Source: an uncultured Thermoplasmatales archaeon (lineage in GTDB: Archaea > Thermoplasmatota > Thermoplasmata > Thermoplasmatales > ARK-15). From it: a DNA stretch of 26,034 bases. The notes beneath the pieces were generated by a model that searched no databases, was not told the DNA's origin, and saw only the letters and a list, made by a program, of their open reading frames with translations. The stretch covers positions 1 to 26,034 of the forward strand of contig CAYSIM010000001.1 in the NCBI GenBank assembly GCA_964431165.1, given 5' to 3'. The stretch's first letter is position 1. Every line of letters starts with the position of its first letter. Of the stretch, positions 3,671 through 18,392 are shown one piece after another. The translations under genes were made by a program, and so were the position numbers.

Positions 3671-5442
3671 AATATGTACCCGATACATCTGTTATAATAA
3701 ATGGAAAATTTCTCGAAATAATTTCTGATAATGATGAAATAATAATTCCAGAATCCGTTCTTTCAGAAATAGAGGCACAGGCCAACAGGGGTTTGATGAT
3801 TGGTTTTACTGGATTGAAGGAGCTTGAAAGGTTAAGATCCATGGAGAGGGAAAAGAACCTGAAGATTTCATTCTACGGTAGAAGACCTGATAAATGGCAG
3901 ATAGAAAGGGCAAAGAGCGGTGAAATTGATGAGATGATAAGGCAGGCAGCACTGGAGAATAATGCAAAGCTTGTAACGTCAGATTTCGTGCAGGCAAGTG
4001 TGGCAAGGATTAAGGGTGTGGATGTTCTTTTTATAGAAACTAAGAGAGGACCATCGGTAAAGATAGAGGACTTTTTCGATAATGATACCATGAGTGTCCA
4101 TCTGAAGGTAAATACATTCCCTATGGCGAAGAAGGGAAGCCCCGGAAATTTTAATCTTGTAAAAATATACGATAATATTCTAGAGGAAAATGATCTTGAA
4201 GAGATTGCAATGGACATTGTTGAAAGGGCAAGGAGTGAGAGCAATTCATTCATTGAGATTGAAATGAAGGGTGTAACCGTTGTTCAGTTGAGGGAATACA
4301 GGATAGTTATAACAAGGGAACCATTTTCAGATGGCATTGAAATCACAGCCGTAAGGCCAATAGTGAAATTTAGCATTGAACATTATGGCCTTGATGATAA
4401 TCTCATAAAAAGGCTGAATGAAACAACTAGGGGAATAATAATCTCTGGTGCACCAGGTGCAGGAAAAACAACATTTGCTCAGGCACTTGCTGAAATGTAC
4501 AGTGCCTCAGGGAAAATAGTTAAGACTATTGAGAGGCCCAGGGATCTACAGGTGAGGGATGAGATCACGCAGTACACTGCACTGGAGGGAAGCATGGAAA
4601 AAACAGGGAATATACTATTGCTTGTTAGACCTGATTATACAATTTTTGATGAGGTAAGGACATCGGAGGATTTCCAGGTTTATGCGGATTTGAGACTCTC
4701 AGGTGTTGGTATGGTGGGTGTTGTTCATGCGACGCGTCCGGTTGATGCCATACAGAGATTGATAGGTAGAATAGAGCTTGGAATGATACCACAGGTAACG
4801 GATACATTCATCCATATTGATGCAGGGAGTGTGAAGAGTGTTTATTATCTTGAATACACCGTGAAGGTACCTACTGGAATGAAAGAAGAGGACCTATCCA
4901 GGCCCGTTATAGAAGTAAGGGATTTCTTTACAAATGCCCTCGAGTTCGAAATCTACAGTTTCGGTGAACAGGTGGTGGTGGTACCTGTAAAAGAGGAGAA
5001 AAACAGGATATACCAGCTTGCAGAGATGAGAATACAGGAAATTCTAAGGAAATATATTCCACACGGTTTTAAAGTGGAGATTTCATCACCTGCCAGCATG
5101 AGGCTATACATTCCATCTGAAGATATTCCTGAAATAATAGGGAAGGGTGGGAGCAATATAGATAAGCTTGAAAAAATTGTTGGACTTCACATAGATGTTT
5201 TTCCCATGCATGAGGGTGAAATAATCCCGGTAATGGTGCAGAAAAAGAAGGATGTTTTTTACCTGGTACTTGAGGGGGAGGTGAAGAAAAGGGAGGGAAA
5301 TATTATGGCAGATAGTGATATATTATTTACAGGTGTTTTCTCAAAGGAAGGCATTATGAAAATAAAACAGAATTCACAGGAAGGAATGGAACTCATGAAT
5401 GCACTCACACAGGGTAAAAAAATTTATTTCAGACCCTGGTAA
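3667..5442 (+). CDS. PINA-type ATPase (PIN domain + RecA-like ATPase + KH); Holliday-junction branch-migration motor family
   Basis: N-terminal PIN (YVPDTSVII), Walker [31 protein letters not shown] motif [13 protein letters not shown] overlap with gatE. Confidence 0.9.
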
Positions 5443-5911
5443 ATTTCTCAAAATATTTATCCTTAAGCTGGTACTGCCTCACCTTGATATCGCTCTCAAG
5501 GAGAACTAACTTTGCAAGATCGTCGGGATAGCCTTCAGCATATACTATTTCCCTTATACCCGCATTTATTATCATCTTTGAGCAGACAACACAGGGGTGG
5601 TTGGTAACGTAAATAACAGAATCCCTCACACTAACACCATGCACGGCTGCCTGTATTATGGCATTCTGTTCCGCATGCAAACCCCTACAAAGCTCATGCC
5701 TTTCACCAGAATCAATGCCTAGATCCTCCCTTATGCATCCTGTTACCTCGCAGTGTGCAAGGCCAGAAGGTGGACCGTTATAGCCAGTGGCAATCACTCT
5801 CCTATCCTTAACTATTACTGCACCCACCTTTCTTCTCAGGCAGGTGGACCTTGATGCAGCAAGGTAAGCCATGCGCATAAAGTATTCATCCCAGTCAGGC
5901 CTTCCTTCCAT
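5429..5911 (-). CDS. dCMP/cytidine deaminase family zinc protein
   Basis: [23 protein letters not shown] and PCVVC zinc-deaminase motifs. Confidence 0.92.
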
Positions 5912-5941
5912 ATGGAAAGGAATTGATTATGATATTAAAAT

Positions 5942-6415
5942 TTATTTCAGCAATTTTTCTTCATACATTTTTATCAGATCATCCACATTGACTTTATTTT
6001 CCACAGCATAGATGAATGCAAGTATTTCAATTGTGAAATATTTGTTTTTTGATCTCATCTTGTTTATTTCACTCACTATTTCATTTCTTTTTTTACCCGT
6101 TGATTTCTCTATCCTGTCTATTGTTGCCTTGAATATATCCTCTTCTTTCTCTTCCCTAATCTCTATCTCCTGAGGTGTAATCTCAAAATCCACCGGAATC
6201 TCAAGGTCCTTGAATGAAAATTGTGGAATGTAATGATCCTCCTCCTTTTTAAGGAGATTCAGCTTTACACAGTTCTCCAGGAATTTTTCAACATAGGATG
6301 GTTCCATCCACCTGTTCTCGAAGGAGATTATTTTAATGAAATCCTCCTTTTTCAGCTCCTGCCTGCCAACCTTCTTCTGAACAAGGAATATTAATACTTT
6401 GAATTTCTCTATCAT
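5942..6415 (-). CDS. DUF2240-family protein
   Basis: Pattern FIKIISFENRWMEP..VEKFLE.C.KLNLL...YIPQF resembles archaeal DUF2240. ATGA overlap with the upstream gene. Confidence 0.7.
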   Translation of the reverse strand: MIEKFKVLIFLVQKKVGRQELKKEDFIKIISFENRWMEPSYVEKFLENCVKLNLLKKEEDHYIPQFSFKDLEIPVDFEITPQEIEIREEKEEDIFKATIDRIEKSTGKKRNEIVSEINKMRSKNKYFTIEILAFIYAVENKVNVDDLIKMYEEKLLK

Positions 6416-10613: not shown

Positions 10614-10643
10614 TTTATATATAGGATTGCATTAATATGCAAT
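10614..10643 (+). promoter_or_regulatory. TATA box followed by a 7-4-7 inverted repeat
   Basis: TTTATATA 10614-10621 with an A-rich BRE-like upstream segment; ATTGCAT-taat-ATGCAAT 10626-10643. Confidence 0.45.
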
Positions 10644-10718: not shown

Positions 10719-10813
10719 CCCGGCTTAGCTCAGTGGTAGAGCGGCGGACTGTAGTGGGAAAAAATTCCGCCGCGGACATCCGCATGTCCCCGGTTCGAAT
10801 CCGGGAGCCGGGA
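10719..10813 (+). tRNA. tRNA-Tyr(GUA) with a 23-nt intron (10755-10777) at canonical position 37/38
   Basis: Acceptor CCCGGCT/AGCCGGG with C1-G72 and discriminator A; D arm GCTC/GAGC; anticodon stem GCGGA/TCCGC; GTA at 10751-10753; T arm CCCGG-TTCGAAT-CCGGG; bulge-helix-bulge can form; CCA not encoded. Confidence 0.96.
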
Positions 10814-11230
10814 TTATTTCTGAGAGTTGTTGAATTTTTTAAAATACTCGTAGACATTTTTTGCATAATTCTTTATTTCCTTTATCTTTGGGTTTCTGGA
10901 ATATTTGTTTAAATCAATGTTTGATAGTGGTAAAAGATATTCTTCCATCAATCTTTTCCTTCTTTTCTCAAAAACATCGATGAAATTTATGTTTGCTGAA
11001 TAAAGGCTCTTCCTTCCCGTTTTTATCCTTTCTACAAGGTTATTTTCCATAAGATCCTTTATGGAAGAATAGACCATTGTAATGGAATATCCCGTCTTTT
11101 CAGCGATTTCCCGTATTGAAAGTGGTTTTTCAGAAATTGAAAGAACAGCATATACCATGCAGGATGAATCGTTGAGACCAATGTTCTTCATTAGCTTTTT
11201 AATGAGAATTATAAGCTCATCTTTAGTCAA
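10814..11230 (-). CDS. Winged-HTH transcriptional regulator (GbsR/MarR- or TrmB-like)
   Basis: VYAVLSISEKPLSIREIAEKTGYSITMVYSSIKDLMENNLVER. Start reassigned to TTG 11230, overlapping the upstream TGA (TTGA) with SD-like GGGGTGGTG; 138 aa. Confidence 0.85.
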   Translation of the reverse strand: MTKDELIILIKKLMKNIGLNDSSCMVYAVLSISEKPLSIREIAEKTGYSITMVYSSIKDLMENNLVERIKTGRKSLYSANINFIDVFEKRRKRLMEEYLLPLSNIDLNKYSRNPKIKEIKNYAKNVYEYFKKFNNSQK

Positions 11231-12618
11231 GGGACACCACCCCCCAGATCTATATTCATTACCTTCCTTGCGTAGGGTATGAGCCTCCTGAAAACAAATC
11301 CATGCGTCCTTGCAAGATCTTTTAAAAGATATATCGGTCTTACATAGAATGATACATATGCCCAGGAAAGCCATTTTAATATCTGCTCAGAAGTGAAATT
11401 CTTTAACTTAATTACAGGTGAAAGTGTTGTAAACTTTCTCCAGTTCAAGGTAAGAAGGAGATTCCTTTCAACCACATAATCCCAGAGTCTTGTACCAGGA
11501 TATGGTGTGGCTATCGTGAACTGTGCTACTGTTACCCCAACCTTCTTGGAAAAATTCACGGTAGTTTTAACATCCTTTACAGTATCATCAGGAAAACCAA
11601 TTATGAATGAACCAAGGGTATTAAGGCCCGCTTCATTGGCCTTCCTGACGGAAATTTTTGCAAGATCGAGCGTTATTCCCTTACCTATGAAATCAAGTAT
11701 CCTTTGAACTCCTGATTCTATGCCAAAATATACGGTGTGTGCACCTGCTTTTTTCATATTCCTTGCAATTTCATCGTTGAATAAATTTACCCTTGCAGAT
11801 GCTGACCATCTGATATCAAGGCCTTCTTTATTTATTCTATCTGTTAGCTCAATGGCCCTTTTCATGTTAAGGGTAAAGGTATCATCCAGGAACTCTATCT
11901 CCTTTTTGTTATACTTATACCTGAGTGTTTTTAGTTCATCAATCACCCTTTCCACTGAATGGCCACGCCATCTTTTACCAAATTGTAAAGAGGAGGAGCA
12001 GAAAATGCAGTTATAGGGGCAACCCCTGGATGTCATCACAGTTCCAAATTGCACACCGTCTATCTCATACTTCTCCATGGGAAGAAGATCCCACGAAGGT
12101 TCCGGGATAGTGTCCACATCAACTATAAGTGGTTGTGGAGGATTATCCACCACTGCATCACCTTTTCTGAATGCTATGCCCAACACATCCTTTGGATCCT
12201 TTTTACCATGAACTACATCGAGAATACCTGAGAATGAAATCTCACCTTCACCCTTCACCACATAATCAATATCCTTACTTTCCTTCAGTGTAAGCTCAGG
12301 AACGAATGTAACATGCGGGCCGCCTATCACTGTTATAATGTCCCTGGAAATTTCCTTTGCCTTCTTTGCCACCTGATATGCATCCGGTATCATGGATGTG
12401 GTGGATGTAATGGCAACAATGTCTGGAGAATAATCTTTCATTATTTTTTCCACTTCCTCGAAGGTGAGATCCTCCGCTATGGAATCAATTATCTTTGAAT
12501 CAAAACCCTTTTCCCTTGCAACAGAAGCAAGATAGGCAAGACCCAAAGGTGGGCCTGTGGTTCCAACTATGCTCTTTATTGCTGATTCAGTGGGAGGAGA
12601 AATGAAAAGAATTTTCAT
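11227..12618 (-). CDS. Cobalamin-binding radical SAM enzyme (class B methyltransferase-like); candidate GMGT methylase Gmm
   Basis: N-terminal B12-binding domain (PPLGLAYLAS, GGPHVT, GEGE), SRGCPYNCIFC, FLDDTF, GIESG, TPYPGT. Family call is strong; the Gmm assignment is inferred. Confidence 0.88.
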   Translation of the reverse strand: MKILFISPPTESAIKSIVGTTGPPLGLAYLASVAREKGFDSKIIDSIAEDLTFEEVEKIMKDYSPDIVAITSTTSMIPDAYQVAKKAKEISRDIITVIGGPHVTFVPELTLKESKDIDYVVKGEGEISFSGILDVVHGKKDPKDVLGIAFRKGDAVVDNPPQPLIVDVDTIPEPSWDLLPMEKYEIDGVQFGTVMTSRGCPYNCIFCSSSLQFGKRWRGHSVERVIDELKTLRYKYNKKEIEFLDDTFTLNMKRAIELTDRINKEGLDIRWSASARVNLFNDEIARNMKKAGAHTVYFGIESGVQRILDFIGKGITLDLAKISVRKANEAGLNTLGSFIIGFPDDTVKDVKTTVNFSKKVGVTVAQFTIATPYPGTRLWDYVVERNLLLTLNWRKFTTLSPVIKLKNFTSEQILKWLSWAYVSFYVRPIYLLKDLARTHGFVFRRLIPYARKVMNIDLGGGVP

Positions 12619-14108
12619 TTTTTACCACCAATTTCAGGTGCCAGAGCAAATTCCTTCAAAATTTCATCATAATATTTCTCATTGTATGAGCAACCAGGAT
12701 CTGGTGCAAGATAATTACCGAAGTATCCATAGGCCCTTGCCCTGCAACCACCGCAAGGGTTTCTGAAGATACAGGATTTGCAATTCTCTTCATATAGATC
12801 CCTGTTTCTAAGTTCCCTTAATACCTGTGAATTTTCCCATATCTCCTTGAACGGTTTTTCTCTAATATTTCCCACCTTTATGGGAAGGAAAACGCAGGGA
12901 CCTACATCACCATTGTCCTCAAGAGATGCATAAAGCCTTCCCGCACCGCATCCTCCTATGAACTCTGCGAGACCTACACCTGTAGAACCATAGTCCGCTG
13001 AAGCAAAGTGAGTCGGAGAATATGTTTTTCCCGTTCCTGCAAGTACCCTTTCAATTCCAATTTGTGAATATGTAGGGCTCGTTGAAAAAATATCTATTTT
13101 CTTTTCCTGCCATCTATCATAAAGATAATTCAGGAGATCCGTCCTTTCCTTGGGTGAAAGATCCTGCATTATTATTTCCTTTCCCCTGCCCGTGGGAACA
13201 AAATTGAAAACAATGAATTTCTTTACACCTAGCGATATGGCAAGGTCTATCATCTGTGGTATTTCGTCAATATTATATTTAGTTGCAGTTGTTGCTATGG
13301 CTGTGTCGAAAGCGCCGGATTGAACAACATTCTTTATGCCTTCCACTGTTCTTTCCCATGCACCCTCAACACCCCTGAACATATCGTGTGTTTTTGGCTC
13401 AGGTGCATCCAGGCTTACCTCAACATACTTTATACCTATGCTCTTCAATCTTTCAACGTTTTGTTTTGTTAGCAATGTACCGTTGGTAGCTATAGTTGTG
13501 TACATCCCTTTCCTGGATGCATATTCTGCAACTTTCCAGAAATCCGGGCTGATTAAAGGTTCACCCCCTGAAAATGATAACATTGTTACACCCGCTTCAT
13601 CAAACTGATCCACAACGCTGAACTTTTCTTCCAATGTCAATTCATCCGCATGTTTGAATGGTCCAGCATTAGCATAGCAGTGAAGGCACCTCAAATTGCA
13701 TTGCTTGGTTATATTCCACACTATGAGCAAAGGAGCTTCAAAAATCTGTGGCCTGGTGATCCCGTATTTGGCCACAGACCTCAGAGTGATTGCAACTCCC
13801 TTCCTCACAAACGGTTCCTTCAGTGCATTTTTTATTAAAGAAATATCATCTATCCCAAATGTTTTCATTGCCCTTTTAAGCGCTGCCTCAATTGTTTTTA
13901 CCTCTAATTCCTCACTAACAGAATTATATTCCTCAACACCTGCAAATATACCTAAAACATGCTCGAATTTTTTTGGAGTAATCATCCTTCTCATTATGAA
14001 TTTAGCAAACCTGTTATCCACTATCTTCTGAAATTGTGCAACAAGCTGTGTAGTATCTATCTTTCCGGTATAGGCTGTAACCACATCACCTCCTATTTTT
14101 TCATCCAT
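12615..14108 (-). CDS. Radical SAM/SPASM enzyme with a long N-terminal extension; candidate GMGT synthase Gms
   Basis: CNLRCLHC, SGGEPL, ATNG, HDMFRG; SPASM with 7 Cys (CGAG, GPC, CKSC, CGGC, PGC); ~125-aa N-terminal extension ending ALKEPFVRKGVAITLRSVAKYGITRPQ. Family call is strong; the Gms assignment is inferred. Confidence 0.88.
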   Translation of the reverse strand: MDEKIGGDVVTAYTGKIDTTQLVAQFQKIVDNRFAKFIMRRMITPKKFEHVLGIFAGVEEYNSVSEELEVKTIEAALKRAMKTFGIDDISLIKNALKEPFVRKGVAITLRSVAKYGITRPQIFEAPLLIVWNITKQCNLRCLHCYANAGPFKHADELTLEEKFSVVDQFDEAGVTMLSFSGGEPLISPDFWKVAEYASRKGMYTTIATNGTLLTKQNVERLKSIGIKYVEVSLDAPEPKTHDMFRGVEGAWERTVEGIKNVVQSGAFDTAIATTATKYNIDEIPQMIDLAISLGVKKFIVFNFVPTGRGKEIIMQDLSPKERTDLLNYLYDRWQEKKIDIFSTSPTYSQIGIERVLAGTGKTYSPTHFASADYGSTGVGLAEFIGGCGAGRLYASLEDNGDVGPCVFLPIKVGNIREKPFKEIWENSQVLRELRNRDLYEENCKSCIFRNPCGGCRARAYGYFGNYLAPDPGCSYNEKYYDEILKEFALAPEIGGKK

Positions 14109-14112
14109 GTTT

Positions 14113-14138
14113 TCACCTCCTTATCATAATTATGATAA
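14113..14138 (-). promoter_or_regulatory. Shine-Dalgarno GGAGGTGA directly preceded by a perfect 18-bp palindrome (candidate operator)
   Basis: TTATCATAATTATGATAA at 14121-14138 is its own reverse complement. The SD is the complement of TCACCTCC 14113-14120. Confidence 0.65.
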
Positions 14139-14399
14139 TTTTAATTATTTTAATTTTTTCAGTAAATTATCATTTTTTAAGTTCCATGTTCTGATATGAA
14201 TATTAAGAAATTATCCATCGATAAAAAAAATTGGACAAAAAACAAATCCCCATGCCCCAAAAATAATCGTTTATAATGAGAAAAAATAACCTGATATTAT
14301 TTTTTGGTTCAAGATAAAAATCCTATGGTAAATTAGTCATAAAAAATACAAAATTTCAATGATAATGCTCTGTAAAAATCCCTCAAAAAAAGTTTTAAG

Positions 14400-14434
14400 A
14401 AATTTATATATATATATTTATTATATATTATAAT
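14400..14434. repeat. 35-nt A/T-only tract containing a (TA)6 microsatellite
   Basis: No G or C between 14400 and 14434; TATATATATATAT at 14405-14417. Confidence 0.7.
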
Positions 14435-14747
14435 GAATATTATAAAAATTAACACCGCCCTAAAATAGACCGGATAATTTTATAAATTTGTTGATTACAT
14501 CAATTTATTCATAAGGATCACTTTGGAAAATAATTTAACATTAAAGTTTTCATTTTCAAAAAAGTATCCTCTTTTCATAAAATAAGGCATACAATTCTAT
14601 TATTGCCCTGAATTGATTAATAATGCACTTGATAAATCAAAAAGATCTTTTAAAGAGGTAATGATCCAATAAAAATATGGGGAGCGGATGATGGTAGGTA
14701 GGATTTATAAAAGGCCTGTAAAGACAGGAATTTTTATATTACCATAT

Positions 14748-14779
14748 TATTTGCAAAATCATTGCAAATATTTTATATA
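14748..14779 (+). promoter_or_regulatory. 9-5-9 inverted repeat and TATA box upstream of the ATPase gene
   Basis: TATTTGCAA-aatca-TTGCAAATA 14748-14770; TTTATATA 14772-14779 lies about 22 nt before the inferred coding start. Confidence 0.55.
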
Positions 14780-14801
14780 CTAATTTGTAATAATATTACA
14801 T

Positions 14802-16048
14802 ATTGAAAACTATAACCCTTGGTGGATTCACGAAGAAGATATTGGTTATCTACAGTGGAAAGAAGCTCAGATAAATTGGATTCCAAGTGTTGTAGAAGAG
14901 ATTTCCATGAAACCCTTTTCCCTTAATTTCATCTTTGGACCCAGACAGGTTGGAAAGACAATGGCCATAAAAATACTTATACACAATCTTTTGAAGTACC
15001 ATGATCCTAGGAAAATATTTTATTATTCCTGTGATGAACTTACGACTATCAGGAACTTGGAGAGGTTCTGGATAATTATCTTTCAGCAAGAAAAGCTTGG
15101 GGAATAAGAAATTCAATGATTTTTTTGGATGAAATAACATTTGTTAAGGAATGGTGGAGAGTCATAAAATCCAGAATAGATTCTGGAAATTTATCGGGAG
15201 ATGTTCTTACAATAACCGGTTCAGCTAGCATTGAACTCATGAAACAGAGAGAATTTTTCCCAGGAAGAAGAGGAAATGGAAAAGATCATATAATGATGCC
15301 TTTAAAATTTTCTGAATATGTCAAGATTCTTTCTAAAATTGAACCTGTCACAGGCAAAATAGAAGAAATTGATAGAAATGTAGATGCAAACAGAATGTAT
15401 TCCTCCACACTCAAAGAATTATTCACAAACTATTTGAAAATTGGCGGATTTCCTAGGGCAATTATAGACTTTTACAGATACGGAAGGGTTTCACAGGAAA
15501 CAGTGAAAACTCATTTAGACAGGATAAGAGGAGACTGGTCAAAGACTGGAAAAAGCGAGAAATATATGAAGGAAGTTCTGACTTACATAATAAAGGCATC
15601 TGGTACACCTATAAGCTGGAATGGTATATCTTCAGAGACAGGAATTAACTCCCCTCACACTGCAAGGAGTTATGTTGAGGTTTTGGAAGGTATATTTTCT
15701 GTAATTATACTTCATATGATCTCACCTCAATCGCAGGTTCTTTATAGAAAAAACCGCAAAATACATTTCACTGATCCACTCCTTTACAGAGTTTTTTCAG
15801 ATTATGTTGGGGTAAAATTTTCTGAAGACTGGCTTTTAGAGGGTGTAGCTGCAGCGCTTTTATCAAGGATGTGTCCTGTCTACTACTGGAGAAATTTTAC
15901 GGAAGTTGATATTATCTGTAAAATGGATGGTGAAAATATCGGGATTGAGATAACAAAAGGATTGAAAAAGTGGAAGAAACCATTTCATATAAAAAAGACC
16001 TATGTTTTAAATGATGATAATATTCATCTCTATATGGCTTCTATTTAA
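14802..16048 (+). pseudogene. COG1373-type AAA+ ATPase (DUF4143 C-terminus), frameshifted and lacking an ATG
   Basis: First frame: IENYNPWW...GPRQVGKT (Walker A)...YYSCDELT. Second frame from 15044: DYQELGEVLDNYLSARKAWGIRNSMIFLDEI (Walker B), TGSAS, GGFP, EVDI...IEI. One base is missing near 15042-15044. Confidence 0.88.
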
Positions 16049-16136
16049 TTTTTAAAACTCACTTTTTATTTGTTTATCCAAAAAATTTTAAAAAAATTAA
16101 TAAAGAAAAAATGGATAATTAAAAATGGTGTAGTAA

Positions 16137-17357: not shown

Positions 17358-18392
17358 ATGAACATTGAAAGGATAAAAAAGAACGTCCAAGAGATAGTAA
17401 CAATTGAGGATCTTGAGAAAATTTCGGGAAGAAGCGGACTGAAGGGTTACATAGGGTTTGAGCCATCAGGTCTTGTACACCTTGGAACGGGGCTCATATG
17501 TGGTAACAAGATTAAGGATCTTGCAGAAGAGAATGTTTCTATGAGGGTGCTGCTAGCTGACTGGCACGCATTTATAAATGATAAATTCTCAGGTGATATG
17601 GAGAAAATAAGGCTGGCGGCAGAAATAATGAAGGAATCATTCCTTGCCCTTGGAGTACCCAATAGTGTGCAGTTCGTCTATGCCGAGGAACTTGTGGATG
17701 GCAAGGAATACTGGTCCATACTCCTGAAGGTGGCAAAGAATACAACACTGAACAGGGTGAGGCGTGCACTGGACATAATGGGAAGGAAGAGCTCTGATCT
17801 TGATATGGACACATCAAAGATGATCTATCCTTTCATGCAGGTAACTGACATATTTTTCATGGATCTAGACATAGCACTAGGTGGAATGGATCAGAGGCAT
17901 GCGCACATGCTCGCAAGGGAGCTGGCACCAAAATTGGGTTTCAAGGTCCCAGTTGCTATACACACACCTTTACTTACAAGCCTGAAGGGAGGTGACAGGA
18001 TGGATTTTACATCTAAAATGAGCAAGAGCAAGGCTGAGAGTGCAATATTTGTTACGGATACGCCAGAGCAAATAAGATCAAAAATAAGGGGTGCCTACTG
18101 CCCTGAAGGTGAGGTAGATAATAATCCAGTTCTTGATATTTACAGATACATAATATTCCCTTACTATAGGGAAGAAATAAAAATAGAAAGGAAGTATGGT
18201 GGTGATATAATAGTTAAGGGCTATGCTGATCTGGAATCACTATATTCAAGGAAAGAAATACATCCCCTCGATCTGAAGGAGAATATTTCACAGCTTCTCA
18301 TTGAAATTTTAAAACCTGTAAGGGAAAAGCTTGAAAGCAAAACAGAAATGAAGGAGATGATAGAAAAGATTTCATCACAAAATAAAAATTAG
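17358..18392 (+). CDS. tyrS: Tyrosine--tRNA ligase (archaeal type)
   Basis: YIGFEPSGLVHLG (HIGH-like), LADWHA, YPFMQVTDI, GGMDQRHAH, KMSKS. Confidence 0.96.
   Translation: MNIERIKKNVQEIVTIEDLEKISGRSGLKGYIGFEPSGLVHLGTGLICGNKIKDLAEENVSMRVLLADWHAFINDKFSGDMEKIRLAAEIMKESFLALGVPNSVQFVYAEELVDGKEYWSILLKVAKNTTLNRVRRALDIMGRKSSDLDMDTSKMIYPFMQVTDIFFMDLDIALGGMDQRHAHMLARELAPKLGFKVPVAIHTPLLTSLKGGDRMDFTSKMSKSKAESAIFVTDTPEQIRSKIRGAYCPEGEVDNNPVLDIYRYIIFPYYREEIKIERKYGGDIIVKGYADLESLYSRKEIHPLDLKENISQLLIEILKPVREKLESKTEMKEMIEKISSQNKN

Follow-up and report, generated by a model that had tools for sequence, protein, structure and literature searches.

The window analyzed here, a stretch of 26,034 nucleotides from the metagenome-assembled genome (MAG) of an uncultured Thermoplasmatales archaeon (GTDB ARK-15; assembly GCA_964431165.1, contig CAYSIM010000001.1, positions 1 to 26,034 of the forward strand), carries at positions 10,814 to 14,108 three genes that we hold, with somewhat better than even confidence, to be an autoregulated and probably repressed operon for the tailoring of tetraether lipids. 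With high confidence, sequence comparison makes the first two genes orthologues of those for the synthase (Gms) and the methylase (Gmm) of glycerol monoalkyl glycerol tetraether (GMGT) lipids; the third encodes a predicted winged helix-turn-helix (wHTH) regulator. The pairing of gms with gmm was already published, along with 74 Thermoplasmata Gms sequences (PMC11214058), and the enzymes add nothing new. The addition made here is that one regulator family and a site accompany gms across the Thermoplasmata and into model organisms of the Thermococcales. Our confidence is evenly divided on the wider proposal that a single GbsR/MJ223-type family is the dedicated GMGT synthase switch of both groups, acting via lineage-specific palindromic operators and including the neighbors of gms in Pyrococcus furiosus (PF0647) and Thermococcus barophilus.

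Gene calls were taken from the open reading frame (ORF) listing and its translations. All three genes lie on the minus strand: gms (gene A; 12,615 to 14,108; 497 amino acids [aa]), gmm (gene B; 11,227 to 12,618; 463 aa; B12-binding radical S-adenosylmethionine [SAM] enzyme), and the regulator gene (gene C; 10,814 to 11,230; 138 aa; GbsR/MJ223-type winged-helix protein). At the gms/gmm junction (...AAA AAATGAAAA), the TGA stop and ATG start share ATGA, and at the gmm/regulator junction (CCTTGACT), the regulator TTG start overlaps the gmm TGA stop as TTGA. Both 4-nt overlaps named in the preliminary description of this DNA can thus be read directly on the minus strand. The TTG was taken as the regulator start because the N termini of homologues agree with it better than with a longer ATG frame at 11,374. 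The operon structure forces coexpression of gms, gmm, and the regulator gene, and the latter is predicted from its junction to be translationally coupled to the enzyme genes. The source MAG comprises 1.14 Mb on 138 contigs and is 82% complete; the best database matches of the window proteins are to Thermoplasmata MAGs. The host does not belong to DHVE2 itself but to a sister family, its enzymes being 67 to 69% identical to I-plasma/Thermoplasma-type proteins versus ~50% to those of DHVE2.

Linkage of the regulator gene to gms

The gene order gms-gmm-regulator is kept in 12 genomes of the same family, spread over four genera, in which the regulator is the fastest-diverging member (42 to 77% identity, compared with 78 to 90% for Gms and 74 to 86% for Gmm). 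Elsewhere in the Thermoplasmata the order is regulator-gms-gmm, with a homologue of the regulator immediately upstream of gms on the same strand and several of the genes overlapping. Such regulator-first loci were found on two DHVE2 contigs, in two complete Aciduliprofundum-type genomes, in one more genome of that family, and in five other Thermoplasmata MAGs. We take the two complete genomes to be those of Aciduliprofundum boonei and a sister strain. In three genomes of the DHVE2/Aciduliprofundum family, the best match to the locus regulator anywhere in the genome is the neighbor of gms.

A regulator profile, built from Thermoplasmata sequences only and run over all ORFs of 100 gms loci, extended this linkage to a third arrangement. 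At 16 of the 17 type II (PF0647-type) Thermococcaceae loci, it matched a divergently oriented gene of ~155 aa lying 10 to 700 bp upstream of gms, with scores of 62 to 75 bits; the neighbor of PF0647 is among these matches. Other wHTH proteins of the window's own genome reached 28 to 29 bits with the same profile. Among 97 Thermococcaceae genomes, regulator and type II gms occur together in 42 and are both missing from 47, while 3 have gms only and 5 the regulator only. Since these genomes are kin, the co-occurrence count is no formal test. In complete Thermococcaceae genomes with an intact type II gms, the regulator is adjacent; in one exception within the family, the regulator lies ~100 kb away from gms, which is a stop-interrupted fragment. 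A DHVE2-like family behaves likewise, with gms in six of seven genomes, the regulator in the same six, and neither in the seventh.

Gain and loss within the window's own genus show the same association. An intron-containing tRNA gene (10,719 to 10,813, plus strand; Rfam tRNA, 61 bits), convergent with the regulator gene, adjoins the regulator stop codon and forms one border of the gms-gmm-regulator cassette. In a same-genus genome (G006; locus L111, contig C106), the tRNA is joined directly to the region upstream of fen-1, and exactly the cassette is missing (compared with window positions 10,821 and 16,090). A second genome of the genus, G005, is also without it. Genomes of the genus are polymorphic for the presence of the cassette, whose regulator and enzymes are gained or lost together. 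The preliminary description had tied a cotranscribed regulator and a palindrome to gms; both proved to be conserved with gms well beyond this genome.

Ten Thermococcales loci (for example, L181:9582-9929, plus strand) have a further gene between gms and the regulator, on the strand of the regulator. It encodes a protein of ~116 aa with predicted membrane helices that is 71 to 87% identical among loci and belongs to no significant Pfam family. Neither the Thermoplasmata loci nor the window's genome has this protein, which could be a partner of the regulator on the membrane side.

Candidate operator and promoter

Read along the minus strand, a purine run and TTAAAATA (14,160 to 14,146) are followed after 7 nt by TTATCATAATTATGATAA (14,138 to 14,121), GGAGGTG (14,120 to 14,114), and the ATG of gms at 14,108. 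We assign GAAAAAA-TTAAAATA (14,146 to 14,160) as a putative B recognition element (BRE)/TATA box and GGAGGTG as the ribosome-binding site, both from the sequence alone. Directly 5' of the latter, TTATCATAATTATGATAA is a perfect 18-bp palindrome and the candidate operator, and the presumed TATA box would place the transcription start inside its right arm. The 64 bp upstream of gms (14,109 to 14,172) are all that is common to same-genus genomes, the rest of the 1-kb spacer being part of a 1.9-kb insertion, and the promoter and site must therefore lie in those 64 bp.

A perfect 18-bp palindrome occurs in 0.7% of 444 AT-rich 60-nt upstream regions of the genome and one with 8 of 9 pairs in 3.4%. 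The pattern TATCA-N6-TGATA occurs only five times in the 1.14-Mb MAG, and every other site in the genome differs from the 18-mer at 3 or more positions. The operator-like palindrome of the preliminary description stands as a candidate of a kind that is rare among upstream regions of the genome. For a second repeat proposed there (10,626 to 10,643), which is situated upstream of the tRNA and has nothing but CAT-N4-ATG in common with the operator, we found no support as a second site.

Relatives keep the arrangement to varying degrees. GAAGGTG or GGAGGTG is retained at the gms ribosome-binding position, and within the family the dyad is found at the same place with single changes (TTATCATAATTATAATAA and TTATCAAAATTATGATAA) or with changes on both arms (TTATTA...TAATAA). 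In another genus of the family its place is taken by TTCTTAAAATTTTAAGAA, likewise a perfect palindrome but of different sequence. Altogether, a dyad of 8 of 9 pairs or better is present at 6 of the 12 same-family loci. A core word, ATCATAAWT, with a frequency of ~5e-5 per strand-base, recurs within ~30 nt of the first operon gene in six regulator-bearing lineages: the window's genus, an Aciduliprofundum-type genome, a second DHVE2 genus (17 bases identical to the window's palindrome site), and three further Thermoplasmata MAGs. It was found at none of six gms-gmm loci that have no regulator. In the regulator-first operons the core word lies between a good TATA box and a likely leaderless start codon. 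The Thermococcales have a conserved palindrome of their own, ATGTCAGAAATTTCTGACAT and variants (ATGTCA...TGACAT), between the divergent regulator and gms promoters; the Thermoplasmata half-site pattern ATCA-N5-8-TGAT was not found in Thermococcales intergenic regions.

The right arm of the window's palindrome (14,121 to 14,129, minus strand) reads ATGATAA, and in regulator-first operons the likely regulator start follows the same word (ATCATAATT-ATG, or ATG ATA GAC). One might speculate that the window's promoter is an old regulator-first promoter that now stands before the gms ribosome-binding site.

The regulator protein

The regulator matches the TrmB-type winged HTH family PF01978 (42 bits; cutoff, 25.6), and nothing else in Pfam or NCBIfam exceeded its cutoff. 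Membership in the TrmB family itself was rejected: the protein has 138 aa compared with ~340 aa, has no sugar-binding domain, and scores 18.7 bits with the TrmB equivalog model (cutoff, 600). Its closest solved relative is Methanocaldococcus jannaschii MJ223 (1KU9; phmmer E = 2.2e-7), which the P. furiosus homologue matches end to end (E = 2.7e-11). The AlphaFold model (predicted local distance difference test score, 94) places a winged HTH between one N-terminal helix and C-terminal helices, and its top Foldseek match is again 1KU9 (E = 3.5e-8), followed by MarR-type and Lrs14-type regulators. Homologues are labeled GbsR (MarR family) by JGI. The modeled fold and these matches identify the product of gene C as a probable GbsR/MJ223-type regulator of the MarR superfamily. 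We know of no ligand for this group.

Proposed regulation and alternatives

In the model that we favor, Tes, encoded elsewhere in the genome, would make glycerol dialkyl glycerol tetraethers (GDGTs); Gms, a radical SAM/SPASM enzyme with a putative N-terminal lipid-binding domain, would join two biphytanyl tails by a C-C bond to give GMGTs; and Gmm, a cobalamin-dependent radical SAM methylase, would then methylate the cross-linked tail. A dimer of the regulator may bind the 18-bp palindrome between the TATA-like box and the predicted transcription start and so repress the operon, including its own gene. Archaeal repressors act at sites between the TATA box and the start, blocking polymerase recruitment, and repression is proposed here because the dyad has that position. 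A signal would release the repression, with heat, acid, or membrane stress as the obvious candidates; since several archaea have more GMGT at higher temperature (PMC11214058), heat or membrane stress is the natural guess. From these features we infer that the regulator binds the palindrome, in which sense it acts, what signal it answers to, and which lipids are formed.

Several findings weigh against this model and its extension to the Thermococcales. No regulator homologue was found in the I-plasma-like and Thermoplasma-like families (f3 and f7), which carry gms-gmm; the regulator is therefore not required for the pathway. BLAST detected no pairwise similarity between the locus regulator and the P. 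furiosus homologue, and the link between them rests on the profile and a match to T. barophilus (E = 9e-11). Genera g2 and g3 have no strong dyad (8 of 9 pairs) within 60 nt before gms; in g2, a perfect palindrome of another sequence stands farther upstream. A paralogue with 48% identity to the regulator (contig C4:794-1216, minus strand), adjoining the S19e gene and divergent from a CDF cation transporter gene, is retained in same-genus genomes without the gms operon, and members of the regulator family can therefore have other targets. The Thermococcales palindrome sits just upstream of the gms BRE/TATA, a position more typical of activation, so that the sign of regulation may differ or be wrong. 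Finally, the names P. furiosus, T. guaymasensis, and A. boonei for the reference genomes are presumed identities, one of which also fits locus tag order.

The Thermococcales palindrome bears on the possibility that the regulator is dedicated to gms but is an activator or dual regulator rather than an autorepressor, which we consider unlikely, if well short of negligible. There the dyad lies between two divergent promoters, and archaeal factors bound upstream of the BRE/TATA often activate. In the window and in the regulator-first Thermoplasmata, however, the site appears to lie after a TATA-like box and before the first gene's start, which is a repressor position. The rise of GMGT content with temperature (PMC11214058) could be produced by either mode.

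A little less probable still, in our judgment, is that the enzymes are Gms and Gmm but the wHTH protein is a general or differently targeted factor (Lrs14/TrmB-like) that is merely cotranscribed, the palindrome being an ordinary AT-rich promoter feature. The persistence of the paralogue by the S19e and CDF transporter genes and the occurrence of gms-gmm without a regulator in f3 and f7 would fit this explanation, as would the count of perfect palindromes of at least 18 bp genome-wide (13, compared with 5 to 11 in block-shuffled genomes). Against it, the linkage holds through three gene orders and two classes of archaea, and regulator and gms co-occur in the Thermococcaceae and are gained and lost together. 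The core word, moreover, stands at the start of the operon only where the regulator is present (~0.003 expected per locus), and the 18-mer has no second site in the genome under 3 mismatches. 

Assignment of Gms and Gmm

Pfam places a Radical_SAM domain at residues 132 to 290 and a SPASM domain at residues 387 to 446 of the locus Gms and has no match for residues 1 to 125. In an alignment of 19 diverse Gms homologues, the cysteines of the radical SAM motif (C137/C141/C144) and seven more toward the C terminus do not vary, and all 19 proteins keep the N-terminal extension. The protein is 43% identical to P. furiosus PF0647 (residues 19 to 486; E = 5e-136) and 53% identical to the probable Gms of Thermococcus guaymasensis (Tg-Gms; E = 0.0), and its residues 19 to 125 align with the N-terminal regions of both. 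The ~125-aa extension reported in the preliminary description is thus real and shared with PF0647. The best curated NCBIfam models (AhbD, NirJ2, and TIGR04053) all score far below their cutoffs, AhbD at 294 bits compared with a cutoff of 500, and the AhbD-like protein of the same genome is 29% identical over the core only, in an alignment starting at residue 121.

In a maximum-likelihood (ML) tree, with the genome's own AhbD-, AhbC-, and other SPASM paralogues as the outgroup, 42 N-extended sequences including PF0647 split from those paralogues (support, 88/95). The locus Gms falls inside a Thermoplasmata clade (100/100) whose sister is a DHVE2 clade that also contains T. guaymasensis-type Thermococcus sequences. 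Identification of gene A as Gms is borne out by this grouping with tested Gms, away from AhbD-like paralogues. Gms was described as an AhbD homologue with an N-terminal extension of ~100 aa (COG4001) that AhbD lacks, and published criteria for it are E ≤ 1e-80 to Tg-Gms, a length of at least 400 aa, and a clade apart from AhbD (PMC11214058); the locus protein lies within these thresholds in motif, SPASM cysteines, extension, clade, E value, and length. An identity as AhbD was rejected on the sub-cutoff scores, the presence of the extension, and the separate AhbC/AhbD pair at hemL.

The reference that we take to be PF0647 is a Gms-like gene at 660 kb, where gene 647 would be expected. In the probable T. 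guaymasensis genome, a 540-aa radical SAM gene (PF04055 only) is followed by gms and an overlapping B12 radical SAM gene (16.7 to 19.5 kb), the latter two presumably being the 21st and 22nd genes, which would be expected at those positions. The layout fits the grs-gms-gmm cluster of T. guaymasensis, with the 540-aa gene as a putative grs. The tested genes are PF0647, X802_RS00105 (Tg-gms), and X802_RS00110 (Tg-gmm), of which the latter two overlap (PMC11214058).

The locus Gmm has a B12-binding domain at residues 18 to 131 and a Radical_SAM domain at residues 196 to 356 (Pfam) and is 63% identical over 461 aa to the gms-overlapping B12 radical SAM protein of the probable T. guaymasensis genome (E = 0.0). 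Published criteria for Gmm are at least 400 aa and E ≤ 1e-65 to Tg-Gmm (PMC11214058), and the locus protein agrees with them in domains, length, and E value as well as in its clustering with gms. Its Thermococcaceae relatives form two classes, one of 60 to 65% identity that includes the gms-overlapping genes and one of 33 to 38%. The locus protein groups with gms-adjacent homologues at 100% support and stands apart from the latter class (Cgm/Pgm), whose four sequences in the tree have 527 to 536 aa. Among the genomes with that class are two that we presume to be Thermococcus sibiricus and Thermococcus litoralis. Both species are reported to have Cgm-clade-2 (Pgm-type) homologues (10.1101/2025.10.20.683597). 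The tree was built without Ted and MoeK5 references; Ted is only 31% identical to Gmm (10.1101/2025.10.20.683597), and confusion of the two is therefore unlikely. A genome search found no second member of the Gmm family in the MAG. Adjacency of gms and gmm is also seen at loci of Thermoplasmata, Thermococcus, Thermoproteota, Nitrososphaerota, and Bathyarchaeia. The proposal that gene B is Gmm agrees with its grouping with gms-adjacent Gmm, away from the Cgm/Pgm methylases, and an identity as Cgm/Pgm was rejected on tree position and length.

That the enzymes do something else, whether heme b synthesis (AhbD), peptide maturation, methylation of unbridged GDGTs (Cgm/Pgm-like), or desaturation (Ted-like), we regard as very improbable: although AhbD/NirJ rank first among curated models for gene A and BchE/HpnJ do so for gene B, Gmm homologues include GDGT methylases and a desaturase (10.1101/2025.10.20.683597), and Gmm may methylate GDGTs in some organisms (PMC11214058), all curated scores are far under cutoff, the N-terminal extension aligns with that of PF0647, both proteins lie inside the Gms and Gmm clades (in trees that covered AhbD-like and Cgm/Pgm relatives), the genome has a separate AhbC/AhbD-like pair at hemL, no precursor-peptide gene was seen in the tightly packed operon, and the Cgm/Pgm class is both distant (33 to 38% identity) and longer (527 to 536 aa).

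In both trees, five Thermococcaceae genomes have a gms-gmm of the T. guaymasensis type that branches from within the DHVE2 clade of the Thermoplasmata. This type of Gms is distinct from the PF0647-type Gms of ~45 genomes, and two genomes carry both. The nested position suggests a transfer of the pair from Thermoplasmata to Thermococcus.

Substrate pathway and flanking DNA

A check of the MAG for tes, as proposed in the preliminary description, found Tes on contig C3 (520 aa; NF045702, 629 bits; cutoff, 450), and the accompanying B12-related check found the late cobamide genes CobS and CbiB. Two TIGR04190 B12 radical SAM proteins are also present and are possibly ring synthases. An AhbD-like and AhbC/NirJ1-like pair adjoins hemL on contig C36. 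On contig C31 (L114, minus strand), a small Lrs14/ArsR-like wHTH gene (5612 to 5992) lies directly upstream of a gene for a 506-aa radical SAM protein (4089 to 5609) with weak similarity to TIGR04013, the pair being placed between the genes for EF-1alpha and TruD. A reading of this pair as a regulated tes was rejected, as the radical SAM protein has no Tes match and Tes sits on C3.

The tRNA gene at the cassette border has an intron after the anticodon loop and an anticodon read as GTA (Tyr); a TyrRS gene is found at 17,358 to 18,392 in the window. ARAGORN in default mode found no tRNA in the window, the tRNA having been found with Rfam. At the other end of the operon, ~1.9 kb of the window (14,173 to 16,077) are absent from same-genus genomes G004 and G001, where the gap between gms and fen-1 is only ~120 bp. 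This stretch includes a spacer of 27% GC and an AAA_14/DUF4143 ATPase gene (15,116 to 16,048), which looks N-terminally truncated, since its AAA_14 match does not begin until position 66 of the 129-position profile. A 22-nt inverted repeat (14,153 to 14,174 and 14,358 to 14,379) lies at its border. A repeat of ~230 bp at ~14,416 to 14,644, with copies of 71 to 80% identity on at least six other contigs of the MAG (C43, C75, C96, C58, C38, and C2), is probably a miniature mobile element.

Implications

The preliminary description suggested a control circuit for lipid cross-linking that had not been described. As to the regulator, this stood: in their main texts, the papers that define Gms and Gmm (Garcia 2024, Li 2024, and Garcia 2025) make no mention of a regulator or of transcription, and literature searches on GMGT regulation, PF0648/PF0649, and tetraether regulators returned nothing relevant. 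It did not hold for the gms-gmm pair itself (PMC11214058). GMGTs serve as markers of environment and paleotemperature, and they are believed to make membranes stiffer when heat or acid stresses the cell. The candidate regulator-operator pair beside gms would bear on how the amount of GMGTs is set. If the wider proposal of a single GbsR/MJ223-type switch is true, that family would be the first regulator to be identified for the tailoring of archaeal tetraether lipids and the molecular means by which heat or acid increases GMGT content. Since the putative regulator-operator pair is present in cultivable, genetically tractable Thermococcales, control of GMGTs becomes an ordinary experiment.

Comparison with known systems

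The locus Gms has a radical SAM/SPASM core homologous to that of AhbD/NirJ, its best NCBIfam match, but AhbD lacks the N-terminal extension and forms a separate clade; the model score of 294 bits is under the cutoff of 500, and the genome's own copy is 29% identical over the core. The regulator most resembles MJ223 and the GbsR branch (COG1510), with the best sequence and fold match, a similar size, and a wHTH flanked by helices; it differs in that the window's genus has another residue in place of the W in the conserved WG motif. In bacteria, GbsR controls genes for osmoprotectants, whereas the archaeal group is linked to a lipid gene. The closest counterparts of the locus as a whole are gms-gmm of T. 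guaymasensis and PF0647, with which it shares enzyme families, domain architecture, and the N-terminal Gms extension (PMC11214058; PMC11186832). As in the T. guaymasensis pair, gms is followed by gmm with overlapping stop and start codons; unlike that cluster, the locus includes no grs, and its host is represented by an uncultured Thermoplasmata MAG. What sets it apart from both the T. guaymasensis and P. furiosus systems is the coupled regulator gene that follows gmm.

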